This document shows, piece by piece, positions 1 to 52,226 of a stretch of DNA of 64,000 nt. The position numbers were made by a program, and so were the translations under genes. Origin of the DNA: Clostridia bacterium (GTDB lineage Bacteria > Bacillota > Clostridia > TANB77 > CAG-508); the NCBI GenBank assembly GCA_017410505.1, contig JAFQQR010000044.1, positions 1,620 through 65,619 of the forward strand, in the 5' to 3' direction. The notes beneath the pieces are model-generated. The model saw nothing but the letters and a program-made list of their open reading frames with translations, was not told where the DNA came from and made no database searches. Position 1 is the first letter of the stretch, and each line of letters begins with the position of its first letter.

Positions 1-3000
1 TCTTGCAACTGGTCTCTAAATCCATATGCTCCACCAGATTGATAAAACCCTGTTTTTCCTTGTAATCTACTTTGTATTATTTGATATACACACCATCCAT
101 TTAGGATTATATTCACTGATTCTAATGGTGTATATACTTGTAATCTTCCCAATAATTCTTTCCAATAATTTTTTACTTTTTCTAATTCTTGTCTACAATT
201 TTGTACTTTGCTATATTTATAGGCCATATTTTTGCTATCAATAATTGACTCTTCTGCTCCGAGTGTGAATATAATTTCTTTTTCTGATAAACTTTCAAGT
301 TCTACTTCTATTTCATATGCTATACATGGTTTCTTTCCTAAACTATTTTCATTATTTAAACTCGGTTTTCTTATTGCATCTGGATTCGCTAAATTTCCAC
401 TTCCTAAAAAGAATCTTTTATCTCCTGTATAGCTTTTTATTTTTTCACTATTTGATACATAAATAATGTCATTTCTAAATTCAGTATTATATAAATTTTG
501 AGCACATATTATATTATTATTTTTATCATACTTTAAGTCTATATAGCCATTTGCTCTTAATTCATCTTCTCCTAAAACTGGTTTTGCATAATATAGTATT
601 TTTAATCTTTTTCTCTTTAAGCTCATATTTTTTAGTTTTAAAATTTGAACTTTAACACTATCTTCTTTTGGTACAAACATTTCTAATTCTTGTTCTATTT
701 CATCACTTTTGTGAATATATTTAGCATATCCAAATCCATAAATAACATTATAATTTTTATCATCTGGCATAGGATTTTGTCCAAGTGACCATGCTTTTTT
801 AGTTTCTAAATCTTTTAAATATATTATTTCTGATGGAATATCAAAATTAGGCTGATTTTCCCACGATGTTACTCTATTTAGCCTACTATTTTTGTACCAG
901 GTGTATCCTCCCATATTTTCTGTAACTAAAGTTCCAAATTTTTCATTTGCCATTATATGTGACCATACTGTTGGTAGTTTATTTTCTTTATTTACTTTTA
1001 TTAGATATTCTTTTCCATCTTCTGAAAAGGCTCCATATTCATTATAATATTTTAGTTTTTCTGAATTTTGTAAAATATCTATATTTTCCGTATTTTCTGT
1101 TTCTATTAATATACTTTCTGCTTCATTTCCTATACTTTTGTATTTCTCAAGATATTCTTCTTCTAAATCTTTAAGTGAATTTTCTAATCCACCTTTACTT
1201 CCATCAATAACAATTCGTGCTAAAAATTTTAGTAAATCTAAATCTTCTCTGCTTATTTCATTTTTAGAAAGTTCAAAAATTCCACCTCTTATATTTTTTA
1301 AATATGCTAATTGACTGTTTAAAATTATTCCTTCTATTTCTTCTCTTACATAATTTTCATAACTATGTTTTTCTTCATCTATAATTACAAGTTCTGTTTC
1401 AAAATTTTTAGTTCTTATAAATTCATAGGCTTTTAAAACTTCTTTTACTACATAAGCATCATTTATATCTTTTATTTTTACTAAAATTATTGGTATATCT
1501 CCTGATATTCCATATTTCCATAATTCACTTTGTTCATATTTTCGTTTTGGCAATTTTTCTAAATTAATTTTTTTAGCTGGATTATTAAATATAATATAAG
1601 ATAACATTTTTTGATAATTTCTTATTTGCGTTCCTTTTATTCTTAAATATCTGCTCTGTGCTTCATTTTTTGCTTTCGATAATTCAAATGCTTTTTTTAC
1701 ATTTTCTTCTATTTTATATTTTTTTATATTTTCAATTGTTTTTTCTTTATCTTCTCCTACTGATATAAGTAGATTTATTGTTGTTTTTTGTTCTGGTTTT
1801 ATTTTCATTGTTCTTTTTAAGCTAACTACTGGTTCAGTGACAAGTCCTATTTTTTTAGAAAATGGGTTTGAATTTTTAACCATTTGAGGTATTCCTATGT
1901 TTCCTCTACCCATAAACTTTTCTTCATCTATTTCGTATTCTAAATCCCCAATTATTTCACTATGTGTACATAAATTTACACACATATATAATTCTTGTTC
2001 ATTTTCATCTCTCTTTTTTCTTTTTACAACAATGCTATTTGTTTCGTGGTCAAATTCAAATATTAAAAATAGATTGTTAAATGCAGGATGAGCATAATCT
2101 TGCTCTTTGTTTGAAAGTACTGGTTCAAAATGTGAAGTTATTTCTAAGATTTCTTCATCATTTCCTAAATTTTCTAATGTTACTTGCCTTATTTCAACAG
2201 GCTCATCTGGGGCCACAATAGTTTCTATTTTTGTTTTTATATTATCATTTAGCATTTCTTGTTCTATCTTGTCTGGCATAAAACTGATTTGATATTTGTT
2301 ATTTTTTCTATAGTTAGAACTCCATATTTTTTTTGATTTTATATTTTTAATATCAAAAAATATTCCTTGAGGGTAATCATCTGTGCTTTTAAATCTATTT
2401 ATAAATTTATTTTTATATACACTTATTCCTTCTCCCTTTTGATTCATTGCTATAAAATAATTTTCATTTGCTATTACATTTCCTCTAATTAGTCTTTCGT
2501 CTATTTTTTTATACGTATCTTGAATATAATCTTCATAATCTATATATTTTAATTTTTCTACTTTTTCTTTATTTTCTTTTGTTATTAGAGCTGTTTCAGG
2601 CATTCTTTCTTGTAACAATATATTTACTGCATTTATTTCTGGATTTTTTATAAATCTCTTTTGCAGAATATTATCATTAAATAAATTATTTATCGAAAGT
2701 AATATTAAACTTTGGTGATGTGCCATATAAGTTTTAACAATACTTGCTTGTGTTCCTTTTTCTAATCTTTCTGGTGTAAAGTCTATTGATTCATAAAATC
2801 CATATTTTCCATACATTCCATAATTTTCTAATATTTTTAAATTTTGATATACCTCTTTTGGATAATCTGTTATTGCTAAAACACTTCCATAAGTTGATAC
2901 TACCATTTCATCTGCTAATCCTCTTTTTAGTCCAAGCCAAGGTATTCCAAATGCTTTATATTGATAATTAGAATGTAAGTCTTTTAAATTAAATGCCGCT

Positions 3001-6000
3001 TCTGATATTCCCCATGGTATTTGCAATTTTTTTGCATATGCCATTTGACACATTACCATAAATTTGCATGATTCGTCTAAAAGACTTCCTTCATATTTTG
3101 GAATATTTATATTGGGCATTAAATATTCAAATGATGTTCCAGACCAAGATATTAAACCTTTATATTTTCCAAATGTAGTTAAAGTTCTACTTAATGAATT
3201 CCAATGTTTTGCAGGTACATCTTTTTTAGCTATTGCTACTAAACTTGCTTGTCTTGCTTCTGATGCTAATAAATCATAATATGAATTTGTTAACTTATTT
3301 TCCTCTATATTAAATCCAATTGAGAATATTCTTTGTTCTTTACAATATAAGTGTGAAAAATCCGTATTTTTTATTAATTTGTCAACAATTTCTAGTAGCG
3401 TTTTTATTTCGTAGGTCGTAGTTCTGATGTCTGACATCTGACTTCCGAAATCGACTTCTGACATCTCTTCTAACCAAGCCTTCACAACATATAAATATCC
3501 AACAAAATTTCCGCTATCAACTGTTGATACATACCTCGGAATTAGTGGTTCTTTTGACTCTGTACTGTACCAGTTGTATAAATGTCCATTCCATTTTTGC
3601 AACCCCTCTATGGTATAAATTATATTTTTTAATAATTCTATTGCTTGCTTATATTCTATATATCCTAAATCATGTGCAGAAATTACTGCTAACATTGATA
3701 AACCAATATTTGTTGACGAAGTTCTTTTTACAATTTTGTTTTTTCTTCCTTCTTGATAATTATCTGGTATTAAATAATTATTTTCTTCATTCAAATATTT
3801 CTCGAAAAATTCCCATGTTTTTCTTCCTACATCCAAAATATATTGTTGTTCTTTTTGTGTCAATATTTCTAATGATGCTTTCTCTTCTCTTTCCTTACTT
3901 ATATACCACATTATGATAGGAGTAATTATCCATAAAAGTCCTAAAATAAATGATAATATATTTTTATACTGTATATATATTATAAGTGTAATTACTCCCA
4001 ATATAACATTTATTAACATATTTTTGTAATACGATATTAAATCTGTTTTTGCTGTTTTTTCAGCTTCTTCTGATGTTGTCCACTCTAATAAATTTTTATG
4101 TGTAATTATTAGTCTATATAGTGTCTTTGATATAGCCTTTAAGCTTAAATATGCTTTATATGGCAGACATCCAAGAGAAATTACTGTTCTTAGTAATATT
4201 CCCTTTAACCCAGAAATTTTTGGAGTAAATGTTTTTTGTTTTTCTTCTCCTTCTTTTATTCCTATTAAATAATTAAATAATTCTAATATATATGGTATTA
4301 TAACAATTCCTACGAGTAATATTGAAATTTTTGATATATTAATATTATAAAAACATTTAATTATATTTATATATACTAATCCTATTAGTATTGAAATCTC
4401 AAATAAACTTCTTCTTAGATTATCAATTATTTTATATTTTGATAACAAATTTAATGGACTTTTGCGACTTAACCATTTAATAATTTGCCAATCTCCTCTA
4501 ATCCATCTAGAAAGTCTATTCATGAAACTTGTGTATTTTGTAGGATAACCATCCATTAACATTACATCTGATACTAGACCACATCTTAAATAACATCCTT
4601 CTAATAAATCATGGCTTAATACTGTATTTTCCGGTATGCTATTTTTTAAAACTTTCGAAAATACCTTTAAATCATATATTCCCTTTCCTGTAAAAATTCC
4701 TTCTTTAAAATTGTCTTGATATATATCTGAAATTGCATTTGTATAACTGTCTATCCCTCCTGCTCCTGCAAATATTTTTGTGAATATTGTTTTATAACTT
4801 ATATCTAAATTGATCCCTACTCTTGGCTGCATTATTCCATATCCGTCTATTACTATGTTTTTTTGTTCATCTATTACAGGTGTATTTAAAATGTGTGCCA
4901 TTGCTCCAATTAATTCTAAACCTGAGTTTAATACTAAATCCGTATCTGCATCTAATGTTATTATATATTTAATATTTTTTAATACTCCTTTTACTTGCTC
5001 ATTTTCTATTTGTTCTTGTATTGTATTTATTTTAAATGGATTTTTTAAATGTAAAATATATTCATTAAATTGATTTAATAAACCTCTTTTTCGCTCCCAA
5101 CCTAAATAACATCCTTCTTTTTCATTCCATACTCTTTCTCTATATATAAAACTAAATATTGGGAATTCTTCATTTTGATATTTTTCATTTAACTTTTGTA
5201 CTTGTTTTTTTCCTTCTTGAATTACTTCTTCATCAAATTTTTCTTGTTTATTACTACTTTGTGAACAATCTCCTAATAAGACAAAATATAAATTTTTAGA
5301 TTTGTTTGCTAAATAGTATCTTTCTAAGTTTTCCATCATTTCTTGAACTTTTTCTTTATTTTTTAAAATTGTTGGTATGACTACTATAGTGGAATTTTCT
5401 TTATCTACACCATTTGAGAAATCAATTTTTGGTATTAATTTTGGTTTTACTATTTTATTTAGAATATATTGAATTATTTGAATGACTATTTCGCTTGATG
5501 GTATCAAAAATACTAAAAAACTTAATATTGCTATTCCTGTATTTTTTATTTTTAAATTTAATAGATAACTTAATAGCATTGAAACTAATATGCTAAAAGT
5601 TGAGATTGCTAAGATATATGTTTTTGTTTTGTTTTGTTCAGTGTCTTCTTTCTTTAAAGTATATTCTAATCTGTCATATAATTTATTAATTCCTTTATCT
5701 ATTAAATAGTATCCTATGTGTGATTGTTTACTATGTCCTTCTTTTTCAAAATTTTCTTGTGCTAGTTCTAGCATTTTTCTTGCTATATATATTTCAGATA
5801 TTTTACTTTTTTTGCTTACTTCTTTTATTTTCCCTCTATAATATTCTTTTGTTTTATGATCCATTTTATTATAAATTTGAACAGGGTCTTTTTTTAGTAT
5901 TTCTTCTACTCCATTTATTTTTTCAAATATTTCTAAAAAGTTTATTCTTTGTGTTTCTTTTATACTTGTTATACTATTTCCTATTAATACTTTTTGAAGA

Positions 6001-6806
6001 GCTATATCAAAATGTTCTTTTTTTATTACATCAGATACTGTTGTGCCTAGCTTTTCTACTACTTCTTCTAGTATATTTAAATATGCATTTGCTTTTTTTC
6101 CATATCTTTTTAAGATATATGACATATATTCTATAAATGGATATCTCATGTCTTGAAGTATTTCTTTTTCTATTTTTTTGTTATTATTTTTGAATTTGAT
6201 TTCTGTTTTATCCTTGTTTTCTATTAATCTTTCTACAATATTTTCTGCTCTATATTTCTGCATTTGACTACTATATATTTTTGCACATACTTCAGTTATA
6301 TTTTCTATTATCGCTATTTGAAGAAACATTCCTATATTCCAGATTTCATCCATACTTAGTGTTTTTTTACTTTGATAGCTTATTAAATAATCTTCTAATT
6401 TTTCTCTTTCTATTTTGTTATCTGAATATGCAACTATTTCTGATGCTAATACATATATTCTTGCAAATCCTCTATATTCTCCATTTGCTATTCCTACAAA
6501 ATTTGTGTATTTATTTAATGGTAGTTCTTTTTGAATTTGTTTGACTGTTTCTTCTATTATATAAAAATTATCTAATAACCATTCTCCTGCTGGATGTATA
6601 TTTATTCCTAATTTTAGGTGTTCATTTAGTACGTTATATACTTCTTCTATGGTTTTGAAATTTTCTAATAGTTGTGGTATTGGATATGTGTCTTTTTGTG
6701 ATTTTGATGTTATATTATGGCTTGATGCTATTTTTTCTAAGTGTTTCTCTAATTGGCTTTTTTCTAACATTGTTCCTGTTATTTTTAGTTTTCTATTTTC
6801 TTTCAA
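1..6806 (-). CDS. Cyclic beta-1,2-glucan synthase-like giant glycosyltransferase/glycan phosphorylase (GT84 + GH94 type, NdvB/ChvB-like). Partial: the 3' end runs off the left edge, with more than 2260 codons present.
   Basis: My own minus-strand translation is free of stops from 6806 to 1. The gene is missing from the ORF track only because it is open at the window edge. N-terminus reads LKENRKLKITGTMLEKSQLEKHLEKIASSH. It has TM segments, a GT core IKYIITLDADTDLVLNSGLELIGAMAHILN, YYDLLASEARQASLVAIA, and SGGAYGFRDQLQ at the edge. RBS GGAGTGGG at 6813-6820, start TTG at 6806 (alternative ATG at 6770). All plus-strand ORFs listed in 26-6894 are antisense shadows. Confidence 0.85.
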   Translation of the reverse strand, partial: MKENRKLKITGTMLEKSQLEKHLEKIASSHNITSKSQKDTYPIPQLLENFKTIEEVYNVLNEHLKLGINIHPAGEWLLDNFYIIEETVKQIQKELPLNKYTNFVGIANGEYRGFARIYVLASEIVAYSDNKIEREKLEDYLISYQSKKTLSMDEIWNIGMFLQIAIIENITEVCAKIYSSQMQKYRAENIVERLIENKDKTEIKFKNNNKKIEKEILQDMRYPFIEYMSYILKRYGKKANAYLNILEEVVEKLGTTVSDVIKKEHFDIALQKVLIGNSITSIKETQRINFLEIFEKINGVEEILKKDPVQIYNKMDHKTKEYYRGKIKEVSKKSKISEIYIARKMLELAQENFEKEGHSKQSHIGYYLIDKGINKLYDRLEYTLKKEDTEQNKTKTYILAISTFSILVSMLLSYLLNLKIKNTGIAILSFLVFLIPSSEIVIQIIQYILNKIVKPKLIPKIDFSNGVDKENSTIVVIPTILKNKEKVQEMMENLERYYLANKSKNLYFVLLGDCSQSSNKQEKFDEEVIQEGKKQVQKLNEKYQNEEFPIFSFIYRERVWNEKEGCYLGWERKRGLLNQFNEYILHLKNPFKINTIQEQIENEQVKGVLKNIKYIITLDADTDLVLNSGLELIGAMAHILNTPVIDEQKNIVIDGYGIMQPRVGINLDISYKTIFTKIFAGAGGIDSYTNAISDIYQDNFKEGIFTGKGIYDLKVFSKVLKNSIPENTVLSHDLLEGCYLRCGLVSDVMLMDGYPTKYTSFMNRLSRWIRGDWQIIKWLSRKSPLNLLSKYKIIDNLRRSLFEISILIGLVYINIIKCFYNINISKISILLVGIVIIPYILELFNYLIGIKEGEEKQKTFTPKISGLKGILLRTVISLGCLPYKAYLSLKAISKTLYRLIITHKNLLEWTTSEEAEKTAKTDLISYYKNMLINVILGVITLIIYIQYKNILSFILGLLWIITPIIMWYISKEREEKASLEILTQKEQQYILDVGRKTWEFFEKYLNEENNYLIPDNYQEGRKNKIVKRTSSTNIGLSMLAVISAHDLGYIEYKQAIELLKNIIYTIEGLQKWNGHLYNWYSTESKEPLIPRYVSTVDSGNFVGYLYVVKAWLEEMSEVDFGSQMSDIRTTTYEIKTLLEIVDKLIKNTDFSHLYCKEQRIFSIGFNIEENKLTNSYYDLLASEARQASLVAIAKKDVPAKHWNSLSRTLTTFGKYKGLISWSGTSFEYLMPNINIPKYEGSLLDESCKFMVMCQMAYAKKLQIPWGISEAAFNLKDLHSNYQYKAFGIPWLGLKRGLADEMVVSTYGSVLAITDYPKEVYQNLKILENYGMYGKYGFYESIDFTPERLEKGTQASIVKTYMAHHQSLILLSINNLFNDNILQKRFIKNPEINAVNILLQERMPETALITKENKEKVEKLKYIDYEDYIQDTYKKIDERLIRGNVIANENYFIAMNQKGEGISVYKNKFINRFKSTDDYPQGIFFDIKNIKSKKIWSSNYRKNNKYQISFMPDKIEQEMLNDNIKTKIETIVAPDEPVEIRQVTLENLGNDEEILEITSHFEPVLSNKEQDYAHPAFNNLFLIFEFDHETNSIVVKRKKRDENEQELYMCVNLCTHSEIIGDLEYEIDEEKFMGRGNIGIPQMVKNSNPFSKKIGLVTEPVVSLKRTMKIKPEQKTTINLLISVGEDKEKTIENIKKYKIEENVKKAFELSKAKNEAQSRYLRIKGTQIRNYQKMLSYIIFNNPAKKINLEKLPKRKYEQSELWKYGISGDIPIILVKIKDINDAYVVKEVLKAYEFIRTKNFETELVIIDEEKHSYENYVREEIEGIILNSQLAYLKNIRGGIFELSKNEISREDLDLLKFLARIVIDGSKGGLENSLKDLEEEYLEKYKSIGNEAESILIETENTENIDILQNSEKLKYYNEYGAFSEDGKEYLIKVNKENKLPTVWSHIMANEKFGTLVTENMGGYTWYKNSRLNRVTSWENQPNFDIPSEIIYLKDLETKKAWSLGQNPMPDDKNYNVIYGFGYAKYIHKSDEIEQELEMFVPKEDSVKVQILKLKNMSLKRKRLKILYYAKPVLGEDELRANGYIDLKYDKNNNIICAQNLYNTEFRNDIIYVSNSEKIKSYTGDKRFFLGSGNLANPDAIRKPSLNNENSLGKKPCIAYEIEVELESLSEKEIIFTLGAEESIIDSKNMAYKYSKVQNCRQELEKVKNYWKELLGRLQVYTPLESVNIILNGWCVYQIIQSRLQGKTGFYQSGGAYGFRDQLQ

Positions 6807-48193: not shown

Positions 48194-51100
48194 TTATCGA
48201 TATAAGTTTAAATCTTCTATTTTATATATTTTAAACGTCTCTTTTATTGACATGAAATCTTTTGTACCATTTTGTGCATAATAATAAATCAATAATTTAT
48301 TATTATCTCCACTAGAAATAGTTTTTCGCACATACTTATTAGCGGATTTTCTACCATTAACATCATCTTCATCTATATAATAATTTTTTACTACATTATA
48401 TGAATAAAATTTATCTTTCTCCATACCTATTCTAAATCTTGTATCCATTTTAAATGTTATTAAATAAGTTGAATCTTTATCAATACTCATATAAATAGAT
48501 CGATTATCTGTCTGTGTGCTATTATCTACTAGATTTATTTCTTGAATTTTTTGATTACTGTATGATATATCAGTTGCAGCATCTTTTGCCTCTATATTAA
48601 ATACACTTTTAGATATTTTATACCATCCAGCATACACGTTTGTAGAGGTATTTATATTATCAAAATCGGCTAATTGTGTTAGATTTTGATCCATGTACCA
48701 TCCGGCAAATGCATATCCTTCTCTTGTAGGGATTTGAGATTCATCTGCTGGATCATATCTATCTAAGTCAATTTCTCTTAATAATATTTCTCCATCATAA
48801 AATTTTATTTTTTTACTTTCTTCCATTTTTGCATAAAGAACCATAGAATTATATACATTTGTTCCATTAGAAAAACTATTTTTAAATTCTTTATCTGTAT
48901 ACCAATCTACAAGGGTCAATCCCTGTTCATCATAAATATAATTATGTGGATAATTATTTCTAATTGTTACTTCATTTACCAATTTATCATTATAAACATA
49001 TTTTATTGTATGCTCTTTATTTTTTTCATGATTCAATAATGATTTATCATATGGCGGATCTATTTTTTCGTATCCATAACATCCGCTAGCTATCCAAAGT
49101 TCTCCTGTTTTAGGATCTACCCTTATTGTTTGAACTTCATATCCACCCTGATTATTTGCTATTGATGGGAATTTTTCATTATTTGATGTTGTTAGTACAC
49201 TCCAATTTTCTCCTCCATCAATACTTCTAAGCAATCCTGTAGCTGTAGAAAAGTAATTTCCAGCTCCTCCAACATATATTACTGATGTTGAATTTGGATC
49301 AATTGCAATACTTTTGTAATTCATCACTCCTGTTGAATCTGTTGGCAGTGTTATTTTCTTTTTGGTTTTATTATTTATATCATACTTATATAAATATGTT
49401 GACTTTGAACCGCCAAGTATAAGTTGCTTGGATTAATGTATACATATTATTATTTACTTGATCATATGCTAAATCTATAATATATTCTCTTGCAATATTA
49501 CTATCTGTATTCCAATGTCCTGTAGACAGCTCTGTCCACGTATCTCCATTGTCGTATGACACTACTAAATTTCCACTTTCATTTCCACCATATAGTTCTT
49601 TTTTTCCTTCATAATTGAATGTAAATACACTTGTACATCCATTCATTTTATTCCAAGTATATCCCTTATCTTTAGAGTAATATTCTGCTGCAAACAAAAC
49701 ATTTGGATTAGTAATTGATTGCAGAGAAGAATAATAAGTTGTTTCTGATACACCAGATACACTGAGTCCTGTATCTACCCATGTATCTCCTCCATCATGA
49801 GTATATGTTAAGGTTCCTCCATACCAGCTTTTATTTGCAAATCCATAAATAGTATTTTCATCAACTGCGAATCCTCCATATAAATTTCCTTTTCCTAGTA
49901 TATTAATTCTTGAATATGTTTCTCCTCCATCTGTTGATATTACTCCTGTATAATCTTGTGCTGAAAAAAATAATAAATTATTATCATAATAGTTAAAATT
50001 AAATCTTCCCCCTTGCATCAAATTTGATATTCCACTTACTTGAATAAAATTTTTTCCTCCATCGCTACTTCTCATAAGTGTATCAGCTCCAAATGTTATT
50101 ACATTATTATCATCACTAGGATCTATTATATAAGTTTTTTCCCTACTTAACCAGCTAGATTTATAAAATGTTGTATTATTATTGGCTATAGCCGTTTGCC
50201 AAGTCTTTCCTCCGTCAAATGATACTGATGTATCATTTACATAGTAGCTTTTTACATTTCTTCTATATTGAATAACAATATGATTAGGATTACTCTTCGA
50301 AACCTCTACGAATTGAGGCCATCTACTACTTCGATAATTTTCATTGGTTATTTTTGTCAATTCCCCATTTATTAAAGTATATATTCCATCCCATGTCTGT
50401 GCATATATAGTATTTCCGACTACGTCCAGCCCAGTAATTCCTTTCGAATAATCTACACTAGGGTCATTTTGTAAATAAGTTTCTTTTATTTCATATGTTT
50501 CTTTGTTTATTAAGAACAAACCATATTGATTCCCTATATAGATTTCTCCATTATCAGTTATTTTAACTATTCCATCTGCTAATTTGGCGTCATTTATAAT
50601 AAGTGTAAATGTTTCTCCACCATCACTGGACTTATATAGTCCTACCTCATTTTCTTTTAACTGACTTTTTGTTTCAACCTCTACTTGGGGGTCTACTCTA
50701 ATATCTGTATCTCTTTTATATGGTATAGAAAAATATACATCCATACTGTATCCTGTTTGACTATCATAACTTGTAGGATCAAATTCTAACCCATCCCATA
50801 AATATCTATATCCATATGTAGAAAAATTTTGTGTTTTTTTCCATGTTTCTGCCATATTATAACTTACATGCATACCACCTATTGAGTCTTTAAGACTACT
50901 TCCTAGCGCAAGAACATGATTTGTGTTATGTGGATCTATTGCAAACATTTCAACTCCTCTGGATACTATCCCACTATTTGCAGTCACCCATGTTTTTCCA
51001 TGATCTGTTGATTTATACATTCCTGCAACATCTATACCATAAAGCATTAAGCTTCCTTCATTTGATGATTCTAATCCTACAGGCCATTGACTTCCAGCAC

Positions 51101-52226
51101 CTGTAATTCCATATTCAGTCATAGCTTTATTTGCCATTAAAATTCTATCATATGTAACATTATTATTTTGTGGTGTAATTTGCTCAAAAGTATATCCTGG
51201 AAAACTAGTATCAGATACTGTTATTTCTTTTTCTTCTTTATCATTATAAACATATTTTACTAATAAAGATAAGTCTGTTAGGTTTATTATCTTATTATTA
51301 TTCATGTCAGCTATATTGGAATATTCGATAGTTTTTAGCTCAATTAATATTTCTTCCAATATATTTACATCTAGATAATCTATTTGTCCATCTTTATTTA
51401 TATCTCCAGCTTCTGTCGAATTTGCAAATGTGTAAATTTGTTTTATAGATATACTTATAATTAATAATATTATCATTGCAAGTATATTTCTATTTATTTT
51501 TTTATTTTTTATATAAATCACTATTTCAATTGCAATCATAATTATAATTGCATATACAATTATATTACTTTTTCCTGTGTTTGGTAAAATTTTATCTGAT
51601 ATATTTTCTTCTTCAATTATATTATTAATTAAATTCTCTTTTTCTATTTCTTGTATTTTACTTTCATTTTCATTGTTTTGTTCTAATTCATTATTTTCTG
51701 CATTAGTATTATTTTTATTATCTGCGCTAATATTTTCACTCTGTTCTGTTTTATACACATTTATTTTAAGTTCTAATTGTTCTGAAGAAATATCACTTTC
51801 ACCATATGATGTTGTTATATCTTTTATTTTTATTATAGTATCTCCTAAATTTGCATCTGTTTTGACTTTAAAATGTATTTGCAATATATCTTCCGCTTCT
51901 TTACTTCCTTCTTTTTTTATTGTTATTAATTGTCCATTTTCTTTATTATATTTAAAATCAGTCCATGAATTTAAACAATAAAAATTATTTTCGTCTATCT
52001 CTTCAAAAATAGATTTATCATAATCTATTTTTGCTTTATATGTATTTATTTCATCTTCCATATCAGTATATTCTGCTGTACCTATATTTACAATTAATTC
52101 ATCATTTTCCTTTACTTTTTGTTTATCACTTTCTATATCAAATTTAATAATTGAATTTGCATTTACCTTTGTAAATGACATTATTATAATTATTAGTAGT
52201 AGTATAAAAATTAATCTTTTCTTCAT
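48194..52226 (-). pseudogene. Surface protein of about 1343 aa. Domain order: signal peptide, cohesin-like module, LPNTG sortase signal with TM and basic stop-transfer, second signal-peptide-like helix, type I dockerin, BNR/Asp-box beta-propellers (GH74/sortilin-like), then Listeria-Bacteroides repeats. It is split by a +1 frameshift at in-frame CGG (complement 49410-49412).
   Basis: ORF 49386-52226 ends ..IQATYTW-R-FKVNIFI*. Skipping C49412 gives ..TYTW-G-SKSTYLYKYDINNKTKKKITLPTDSTGVMNYKSIAIDPNS.., which is ORF 48194-49327 (49411-49327=84). LPNTG lies at aa 214-218. The dockerin is GDINKDGQIDYLDVNIL...ADMNNNKIINLTDLSLL. There are about 10 SxDxGxTW boxes. The C-terminal repeats include YAFAGWYMDQNL..NVYAGWY. 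Confidence 0.8.

Follow-up and report, generated by a model that had tools for sequence, protein, structure and literature searches.

The closest described counterparts of the gene considered here are the streptococcal M26 proteases (IgA1 protease/ZmpA, ZmpB, ZmpC and ZmpD), which carry a signal peptide, an N-terminal LPXTG motif, two transmembrane (TM) segments and a second signal-peptidase site (PMC3518915). According to the secretion model published for them (PMC3518915, citing Bender & Weiser 2006), the second helix serves as a signal peptide in its own right; surface retention of the Zmp proteins is dependent on SrtA, with deletion of srtA depleting IgA1 protease and ZmpB (PMC13604702). 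A gene for a protein of 946 amino acids (aa), located on the minus strand of a 64,000-nucleotide stretch of Clostridia bacterium DNA (assembly GCA_017410505.1, contig JAFQQR010000044.1, positions 1,620 to 65,619; the whole stretch is referred to as the window), encodes the same order of parts, with a cohesin placed in front of the sortase motif and a dockerin placed behind the second helix. We propose, at a probability of roughly 0.5, that this gene encodes a bipartite surface-display precursor, in which the cohesin would be fixed to the wall by sortase, the dockerin-bearing enzyme would be freed by signal peptidase, and the two would then dock onto each other again.

The likeness to the Zmp proteases is one of topology and of the published processing model. 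M26 is the cargo of the streptococcal proteins and also marks the commonest cargo family of the cassette described below (41/59), whereas the cargo in the window is GH74-like (GH, glycoside hydrolase family). Descriptions of the streptococcal proteins contain neither a cohesin before the LPXTG motif nor a dockerin after the second helix, and the retention of the enzyme with the anchored N-terminal piece is not explained there by defined modules. Sortase-anchored single-cohesin scaffoldins, such as ScaE of Ruminococcus and cSca5 of the Limousia mucinolysome, consist of a signal peptide, one cohesin, a linker and LPXTG and serve as wall-fixed receptors for dockerin partners (PMC11557425; PMC12997984). 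They correspond to the N-terminal half of the window protein alone, and the stand-alone relatives of the cassette (~250 aa) share exactly this form; however, in ScaE and cSca5 the chain stops behind the sorting signal and the dockerin partners are encoded elsewhere by genes of their own, whereas the window chain runs through helix 2 into the partner. The cohesins of C. perfringens GH33 NanJ (2vo8) and GH84 NagJ (2jh2) are the nearest structural neighbours of the modelled window cohesin, at an identity of only 11-17%, and likewise assemble enzymes that degrade host glycans rather than cellulases, but they are internal modules of secreted enzymes without LPXTG or hairpin syntax.

An earlier, sequence-only reading of this DNA had held that cohesins and dockerins normally sit on separate chains and that the design had not been described, and both statements need narrowing. 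Monovalent adaptor scaffoldins hold a cohesin and a dockerin on one polypeptide (PMC11557425), and a protein of this adaptor type is encoded directly upstream of a dockerin-cargo gene in the split loci L017-L035 discussed below. What is unusual in the window protein is the sorting signal and hairpin between the two modules; adaptor scaffoldins lack it, no cut is expected in them, and their cohesin and dockerin specificities differ by design. As to novelty, topology and processing model are already published for the streptococcal Zmp proteins (PMC3518915). No description of a cohesin/dockerin version was found in the literature covered, which did not extend to subscription journals. The design combines a Zmp-type bipartite precursor with cohesin-dockerin anchoring, and only this cohesin/dockerin version appears to be new.

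The reading frame is open from 52226 to 49389 with zero stop codons. All elements that the sequence-only reading had listed, from the signal peptide through the BNR propellers, are present where it placed them, and the architecture of the protein is confirmed with the coordinates in Table 1; its lower limit of 50700 was wrong, as it falls inside the propeller while the open reading frame (ORF) continues to 49386. The description as a single uninterrupted frame holds for the cassette, which is open throughout, but the ORF ends early at a frameshift in the cargo and is continued by a second ORF. The signal-peptide pattern of MKK, a hydrophobic stretch and small-x-A is kept in all homologues, and the length of the linker behind the cohesin differs among them. 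In the sorting signal, LPNTG is followed by K-S-N, an 18-residue hydrophobic segment (TM1) and KNKKINRN; it lies at aa 214-247 of the 946-aa ORF (>1300 aa before the frameshift) and not at the extreme C-terminus. Helix 2, which follows directly, fits the layout of a Sec signal peptide (KNKKINRN / ILAMIILLIISISI / KQIYTFA↓NS, the arrow here and below marking a predicted cleavage), with small residues at -3 and -1. The syntax thus reads as a sorting signal joined head-to-tail to a signal peptide, with a shared basic loop that would double as the charged tail of the former and the n-region of the latter. The codon for Met251 (51474-51476) lies within helix 2; a Shine-Dalgarno-like sequence was sought ahead of it and none was found, the bases upstream reading ...AAATAGAAATATACTTGCAATG, so that the earlier observation of neither a stop codon nor a ribosome-binding site before helix 2 is borne out.

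Both binding modules score above threshold in the Pfam hidden Markov model (HMM) searches that the sequence-only reading had called for: Cohesin (PF00963) reaches 25.7 bits over aa 35-145, a small margin above its cut-off of 24.1, and Dockerin_1 (PF00404) reaches 30.9 bits over aa 273-326, its cut-off being 22.9. The cassette profile matches solved type I dockerins (4fl4 at 4e-9, 6kg9 at 2e-7, 1ohz at 2e-5), and its cohesin part gives weak matches only, to C. perfringens cohesins. An AlphaFold2 (AF2) model of the 335-aa cassette, built from a 29-sequence alignment, has a mean predicted local distance difference test score (pLDDT) of 77.7 and a predicted template modelling score (pTM) of 0.66. 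In this model aa 26-158 form an all-beta sandwich (pLDDT ~95), the dockerin is placed at pLDDT ~90 with helices at 284-294 and 316-334, and the helices at 222-241 and 246-272 have pLDDT ~65-70. When the cohesin model was compared with the PDB by Foldseek, the matches were almost exclusively cohesins, with a probability of 1.0 throughout, led by the C. perfringens modules 2vo8 (template modelling score 0.81) and 2jh2 (0.79) and followed by type I cohesins at 0.6-0.7; the N-terminal module is accordingly predicted to have a cohesin fold. A pTM of ~0.42 would be expected for 335 residues if only the 133-residue cohesin were placed rigidly, and the value of 0.66 therefore suggests that dockerin and hairpin pack against the cohesin in the model.

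The cargo was found to be GH74-like by several routes. Pfam reports BNR (44.4 bits) and Sortilin-Vps10 (47.5 bits); a PDB search with the cargo as a single sequence gave no match, and the family profile was needed to match GH74 xyloglucanases (2cn2 at 1.8e-9). The AF2 model of the cargo (pLDDT 81.6, pTM 0.77) has as its top 25 Foldseek matches only GH74 proteins (E 1e-21 to 1e-15, template modelling score 0.43-0.56, 12-16% identity), the best being 6p2m at 1.7e-21. The frameshift truncates the second propeller. Shifting the frame restores ...TYTW followed by GGSKSTYLYKYDINNK..., which corresponds to TYSWGGIERIYKYDINND in homologues, and the lesion is read as a 2-nt deletion in a run of G; a programmed frameshift was considered and rejected, as there is no slippery motif at the site. 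The detached 3' part matches Pfam Flg_new at 48.7 bits and is collinear with the C-terminal third of the homologue P0002, which is intact at 1363 aa. The 946-aa product would thus stop before the second propeller is complete, but its cassette is intact.

Conservation of the fused frame is the strongest argument that the junction is genuine. Among 32 full-length homologues (~50% identical), 31 keep the syntax of [LW]Px[TA]G, a TM segment, R/K-Y-K/R-K-I-N/S-K, a helix ending in ...IQA↓xS and a dockerin, and complete fused ORFs occur in at least eight species-level gut genomes (L018, L023, L026, L027, L031, L032, which is Clostridium sp. CAG:389, L039 and L042). This ordered syntax is far beyond chance, because the same order recurs in dozens of diverged proteins. 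A lost stop codon or an assembly error at the junction is ruled out by an open frame conserved across many species, and the lone missed stop that the sequence-only reading had entertained falls away, since its relatives keep the frame open across the junction in the same 31 of 32 cases. Its broader suggestion of a fusion by stop loss is apt as history, but the fusion is fixed across species and cargo types and is no one-off. Between the basic loop and the dockerin, 25 of the 32 close homologues have no Met codon, and therefore the second half is not separately translated as a conserved mode; translation from Met251 as a general mode was rejected for this reason and for want of a Shine-Dalgarno sequence.

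Beyond the subfamily, a profile of aa 1-335 (alignment A1) was searched against 1.84 billion representative proteins and gave 5095 matches at E<=1e-3 and 80 at E<=1e-30. Among the best 150 profile matches, from which all counts of distant cassettes given here derive, the full length of the profile is matched at the N-terminus of about 65 proteins of 330-3417 aa (in P0074, internally) and ~34-45 proteins of ~235-300 aa are stand-alone anchors of signal peptide, cohesin and LPXTG, for example P0124 with a Pfam Cohesin match. A homologue search with a different cassette alignment (A2) returned 3 matches only and was uninformative, low-complexity words probably being to blame. The cassette is widespread in low-GC gut Firmicutes.

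Across the 65 cassettes covered by the hairpin statistics, TM1, helix 2 and the basic loop between them are kept in all. The net charge of this inter-helix loop is +3 or higher in 65/65 (median +5, median length 15 residues), and a small-x-Ala triplet follows the hydrophobic core of helix 2 in 59/65. The sortase motif is less stable: a strict [LIVWF]Px[TA]G stands ahead of TM1 in 31/65, a looser motif in 3 and an xTG remnant in 8, and it is absent in 23. The site of signal-peptidase type thus varies less across the cassettes than the sortase motif does, which is nonetheless kept as [LW]Px[TA]G in 31/32 of the window's own subfamily.

The hairpin also contains polar residues. An acidic residue occurs in TM1 of 22/65 fused cassettes versus 4/34 stand-alone LPXTG anchors, and Gln or Asn is found in the distal half of helix 2 in 48/65 cassettes (P0059-P0207); the window protein has E at aa 233 in TM1 and KQ at aa 262-263 in helix 2. 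Such residues may serve helix pairing or provide a handle for clearing the leftover hairpin. Two relatives are interrupted in this region. One (L045) is split exactly in the loop (1174-1192) by a one-base frame difference; there the dockerin gene starts in overlap with the stop of the cohesin-NPQTG gene (ATGA). Another (L046) has a frameshift in TM1. Its runs of A may make the loop a hot spot of slippage, with switching between fused and split forms; alternatively, sequencing errors may account for these cases. The stand-alone relatives P0148 and P0098, considered as clean two-gene ancestors, proved to be near-fused or frameshifted versions.

The cassette is combined with varied cargo. When 59 fused representatives were clustered by cargo, 41 fell into a family with M26/Glug-annotated members, of which three were scanned with Pfam and all were M26 (P0068, P0079, P0095). 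A further 8/59, including the window protein, carry BNR/GH74-like propellers and 3/59 carry GH5 (P0069, P0138, P0157); another group of 3/59 comprises P0075 with DUF4874/DUF4832, P0089 with a weak BNR-like match and P0112 with a dockerin only, and 4/59 are singletons, including the Big_2-rich P0173. Other arrangements of the modules were also seen. P0127 (1053 aa) has the permuted order of signal peptide, dockerin, Big_2, GH141/beta-helix, cohesin and C-terminal LPHTG, P0134 (1151 aa) is also permuted (signal peptide, dockerin, cargo, cohesin, C-terminal LPXTG), and P0074 (2056 aa) contains the entire cassette at residues 1033-1348 with cargo regions on both sides.

In loci L017, L019-L024, L030, L034 and L035 the parts are split over two genes. 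The first gene (~312 aa, range 309-326) encodes a signal peptide, the cohesin, a small beta domain and a different dockerin, without LPXTG; the second, directly downstream, has its own ribosome-binding site and ATG and encodes an ordinary signal peptide (for example MKDKMKKILKISICLIVFLILTLGAIYA↓TNVLSSKGELNDDGIIDY), a dockerin and a giant cargo. Such an arrangement implies a further, unseen anchoring cohesin in these genomes. In unmasked BLAST alignments the free-standing N-termini align from residue 2-6 with the loop, helix 2, IYA motif and dockerin of the fused proteins, at 40-63% identity over ~120 residues, and helix 2 descends from a signal peptide, because it is collinear with the N-terminal signal peptides of these free-standing dockerin-enzyme genes. 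The cohesins of fused, split and stand-alone forms are in many cases mutual nearest neighbours, and this interleaving indicates that the arrangements interconvert in evolution.

These features can be combined into a mechanism, for which we infer the membrane topology, both cleavages and cognate binding between cohesin and dockerin. The N-terminal signal peptide would start Sec export of the cohesin, LPNTG-TM1-KNKK would act as sorting signal and stop-transfer, and helix 2 would re-initiate export of dockerin and enzyme. A positively charged loop stays cytoplasmic by the positive-inside rule, and the basic loop is therefore expected inside with the flanking modules exported, which would leave both ends of the chain outside and bring two candidate cleavage sites side by side at the outer membrane face. 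Sortase would then cut LPNT↓G and link the cohesin to peptidoglycan, and signal peptidase I would cut after TFA(268) and release the dockerin-GH74-like enzyme. The freed enzyme could be caught non-covalently by the cohesin of the same chain, giving 1:1 anchoring at the site of secretion, and in relatives that have lost LPXTG the hairpin would keep the cohesin tethered in the membrane. A self-assembling precursor, one of the two possibilities raised by the sequence-only reading, agrees with the whole of the sequence evidence (loop charge in 65/65, small-x-Ala in 59/65, cohesin fold) and is the best-supported candidate model.

Several observations weigh against this precursor and shape the alternatives to it. 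No sortase recognisable by a TLxTC motif was found in the window (64 kb) or in 45 related loci (534 kb). LPXTG is degenerate or absent in 31/65 distant cassettes, so that a sortase step is dispensable in many lineages. The LPXTG model TIGR01167 scores below threshold on the window protein (12.4 bits, E 0.2; cut-off 15.9), as does NF053819 (18.2 bits against 47), a shortfall that is unsurprising because the signal is not C-terminal. The cargo gene is broken in the window genome itself. Finally, the exact protein (MBQ2938448.1, from a Clostridia bacterium metagenome-assembled genome) is found in NCBI, ENA (ERZ28018789) and Logan (SRR12529058) assemblies, but over 9-12 kb these match the window at 100% identity, frameshift included; their independence is therefore unsupported, and they probably represent one sample. 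If the sortase step is left out altogether, signal peptidase alone would cut, and a cohesin held in the membrane via TM1, loop and helix 2 would capture the freed dockerin-enzyme. The lack of a sortase gene in the loci searched and the many cassettes without LPXTG agree with this, and membrane-anchored single cohesins are known from ruminococci (PMC13463774; PMC11557425). Yet the window protein has a canonical LPNTG with hydrophobic stretch and K-rich tail, and the motif is conserved in its subfamily. Canonical C-terminal LPXTG proteins were found in the related loci in L044 only. The close paralogue P0032 ends in a canonical C-terminal LPKTG signal, which implies that related organisms have a sortase; omission of the sortase step is, on balance, improbable here.

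It is also conceivable that neither cut takes place and that the protein is a two-pass membrane protein, with the hairpin as a permanent anchor, the LPXTG motif as a relic and the cohesin recruiting the dockerins of other molecules into daisy-chains or lattices. The loss or degeneration of LPXTG in those 31 cassettes, while the helices and basic loop are always kept, agrees with this, the excess of acidic residues in TM1 of fused forms and the Gln or Asn in helix 2 hint at a lasting packed hairpin, and the permuted proteins indicate that both modules are possible on an uncut chain. A plain anchor helix, however, needs no small-x-Ala, which stands at a fixed distance before the dockerin in 59/65 and was inherited from a true cleavable signal peptide, and the sortase motif is retained in 31/32 proteins of the window subfamily; we regard a permanently uncut protein as unlikely, though deserving of weight. 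Very little speaks for a non-functional fusion, be it an assembly or sequencing error or a decaying pseudogene that merges neighbouring genes. The same gene does have a real frameshift downstream, the relatives L045 and L046 are split or frameshifted in the A-rich loop or TM1, and the three assemblies with the gene are identical; but many species and samples contribute to the dozens of diverged proteins in which the junction is open, and 25 close homologues have no Met to start a second gene, so that an artefact at the junction is effectively refuted.

Table 1. Features of the cassette gene and its detached 3' part, in window coordinates; arrows mark predicted cleavage.
Feature	Position	Strand	Residues (aa)	Basis and remarks
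ORF encoding the whole architecture in one frame	49386..52226	-	946 in total	Read from sequence
N-terminal Sec signal peptide, MKKRLIFILLLIIIIMSFTKVNA↓NS	52158..52226	-	1-23	Read directly; ends VNA↓NS; helix 2-18 in AF2 model
Cohesin module	51753..52151	-	26-158	Pfam, AF2, Foldseek
Disordered linker rich in Asn/Glu/Lys	51588..51752	-	159-213	AF2 pLDDT <50 over residues 165-219
LPNTG sortase-type motif	51573..51587	-	214-218	Read directly
TM1, hydrophobic part of sorting signal, IIVYAIIIMIAIEIVIYI	51510..51563	-	222-239	Read directly; AF2 helix 222-241
Basic loop KNKKINRN, predicted cytoplasmic	51486..51509	-	240-247	Loop charge across cassettes; coded by runs of A (ATAAAAAATAAAAAAATAAATAGA)
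Helix 2, internal, signal-peptide-like, ILAMIILLIISISIKQIYTFA, then NS	51423..51485	-	248-268	Predicted signal peptidase I site TFA↓NS after A268
Type I dockerin, two Ca-binding repeats	51249..51410	-	273-326	Pfam, profile, AF2
Dockerin repeat 1, DINKDGQIDYLD	51369-51404	-	275-286	Read directly
Dockerin repeat 2, DMNNNKIINLTD	51273-51308	-	307-318	Read directly
Cargo, GH74-like tandem BNR/Asp-box beta-propeller, shortened by frameshift	49389..51221	-	336-946	Pfam, profile, AF2/Foldseek
Frameshift site	49410..49415	-		TGGCGGT where relatives imply TGG GGC GGT; stop at 49386-49388
Detached 3' part of cargo gene, separate ORF	48194..49327	-	377 in total	Last propeller blades, InlB B-repeat (Flg_new), C-terminal domain

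The window has a G+C content of 26.7%, and the genes next to the cassette gene have housekeeping roles (RecQ helicase, radical SAM, Maf, non-canonical NTPase, metallophosphoesterase and cyclophilin); no scaffoldin or sortase cluster is found around it in the window. Two further genes on the minus strand are of note. At 3-6806 lies an ORF of >2268 aa that extends beyond the window edge and encodes a GH94 supersandwich, a glucoamylase-like and a GH94 catalytic domain; its product resembles proteins of the cyclic beta-1,2-glucan synthase or phosphorylase type. At 57096-57896 a 266-aa surface protein is encoded, which combines a signal peptide and a His/Gly-rich segment with a long Ser/Thr spacer and one Big_2 domain; it ends in a Gly-rich C-terminal TM helix followed by KKSKQ, without LPXTG.

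Taken together, the cassette may tentatively be viewed as a portable auto-anchoring module, split and re-docked after export and fitted to cargo of up to ~3000 aa, and as an explicit, perhaps ancestral version of the N-terminal LPXTG layout that has long been puzzling in the Zmp proteases, a link that is proposed because its commonest cargo is the M26 peptidase family. If this is true, it would supply a mechanistic reason for the N-terminal LPXTG topology of these virulence factors, and it would carry the cohesin-dockerin interaction past cellulosomes to the breakdown of host glycoproteins and peptides by uncultured gut Clostridia and Bacilli. Proteins with the cassette need special handling in annotation; none of the simple classes (LPXTG surface protein, membrane protein, scaffoldin) describes them correctly. 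The cassette is also a compact natural single-gene design that could be copied to display large enzymes non-covalently on Gram-positive cells. Should the processing model hold, one translation product would give rise to a receptor-ligand pair, and each enzyme, some of them ~3000 aa long, would bring its own wall anchor to the place where it is exported.

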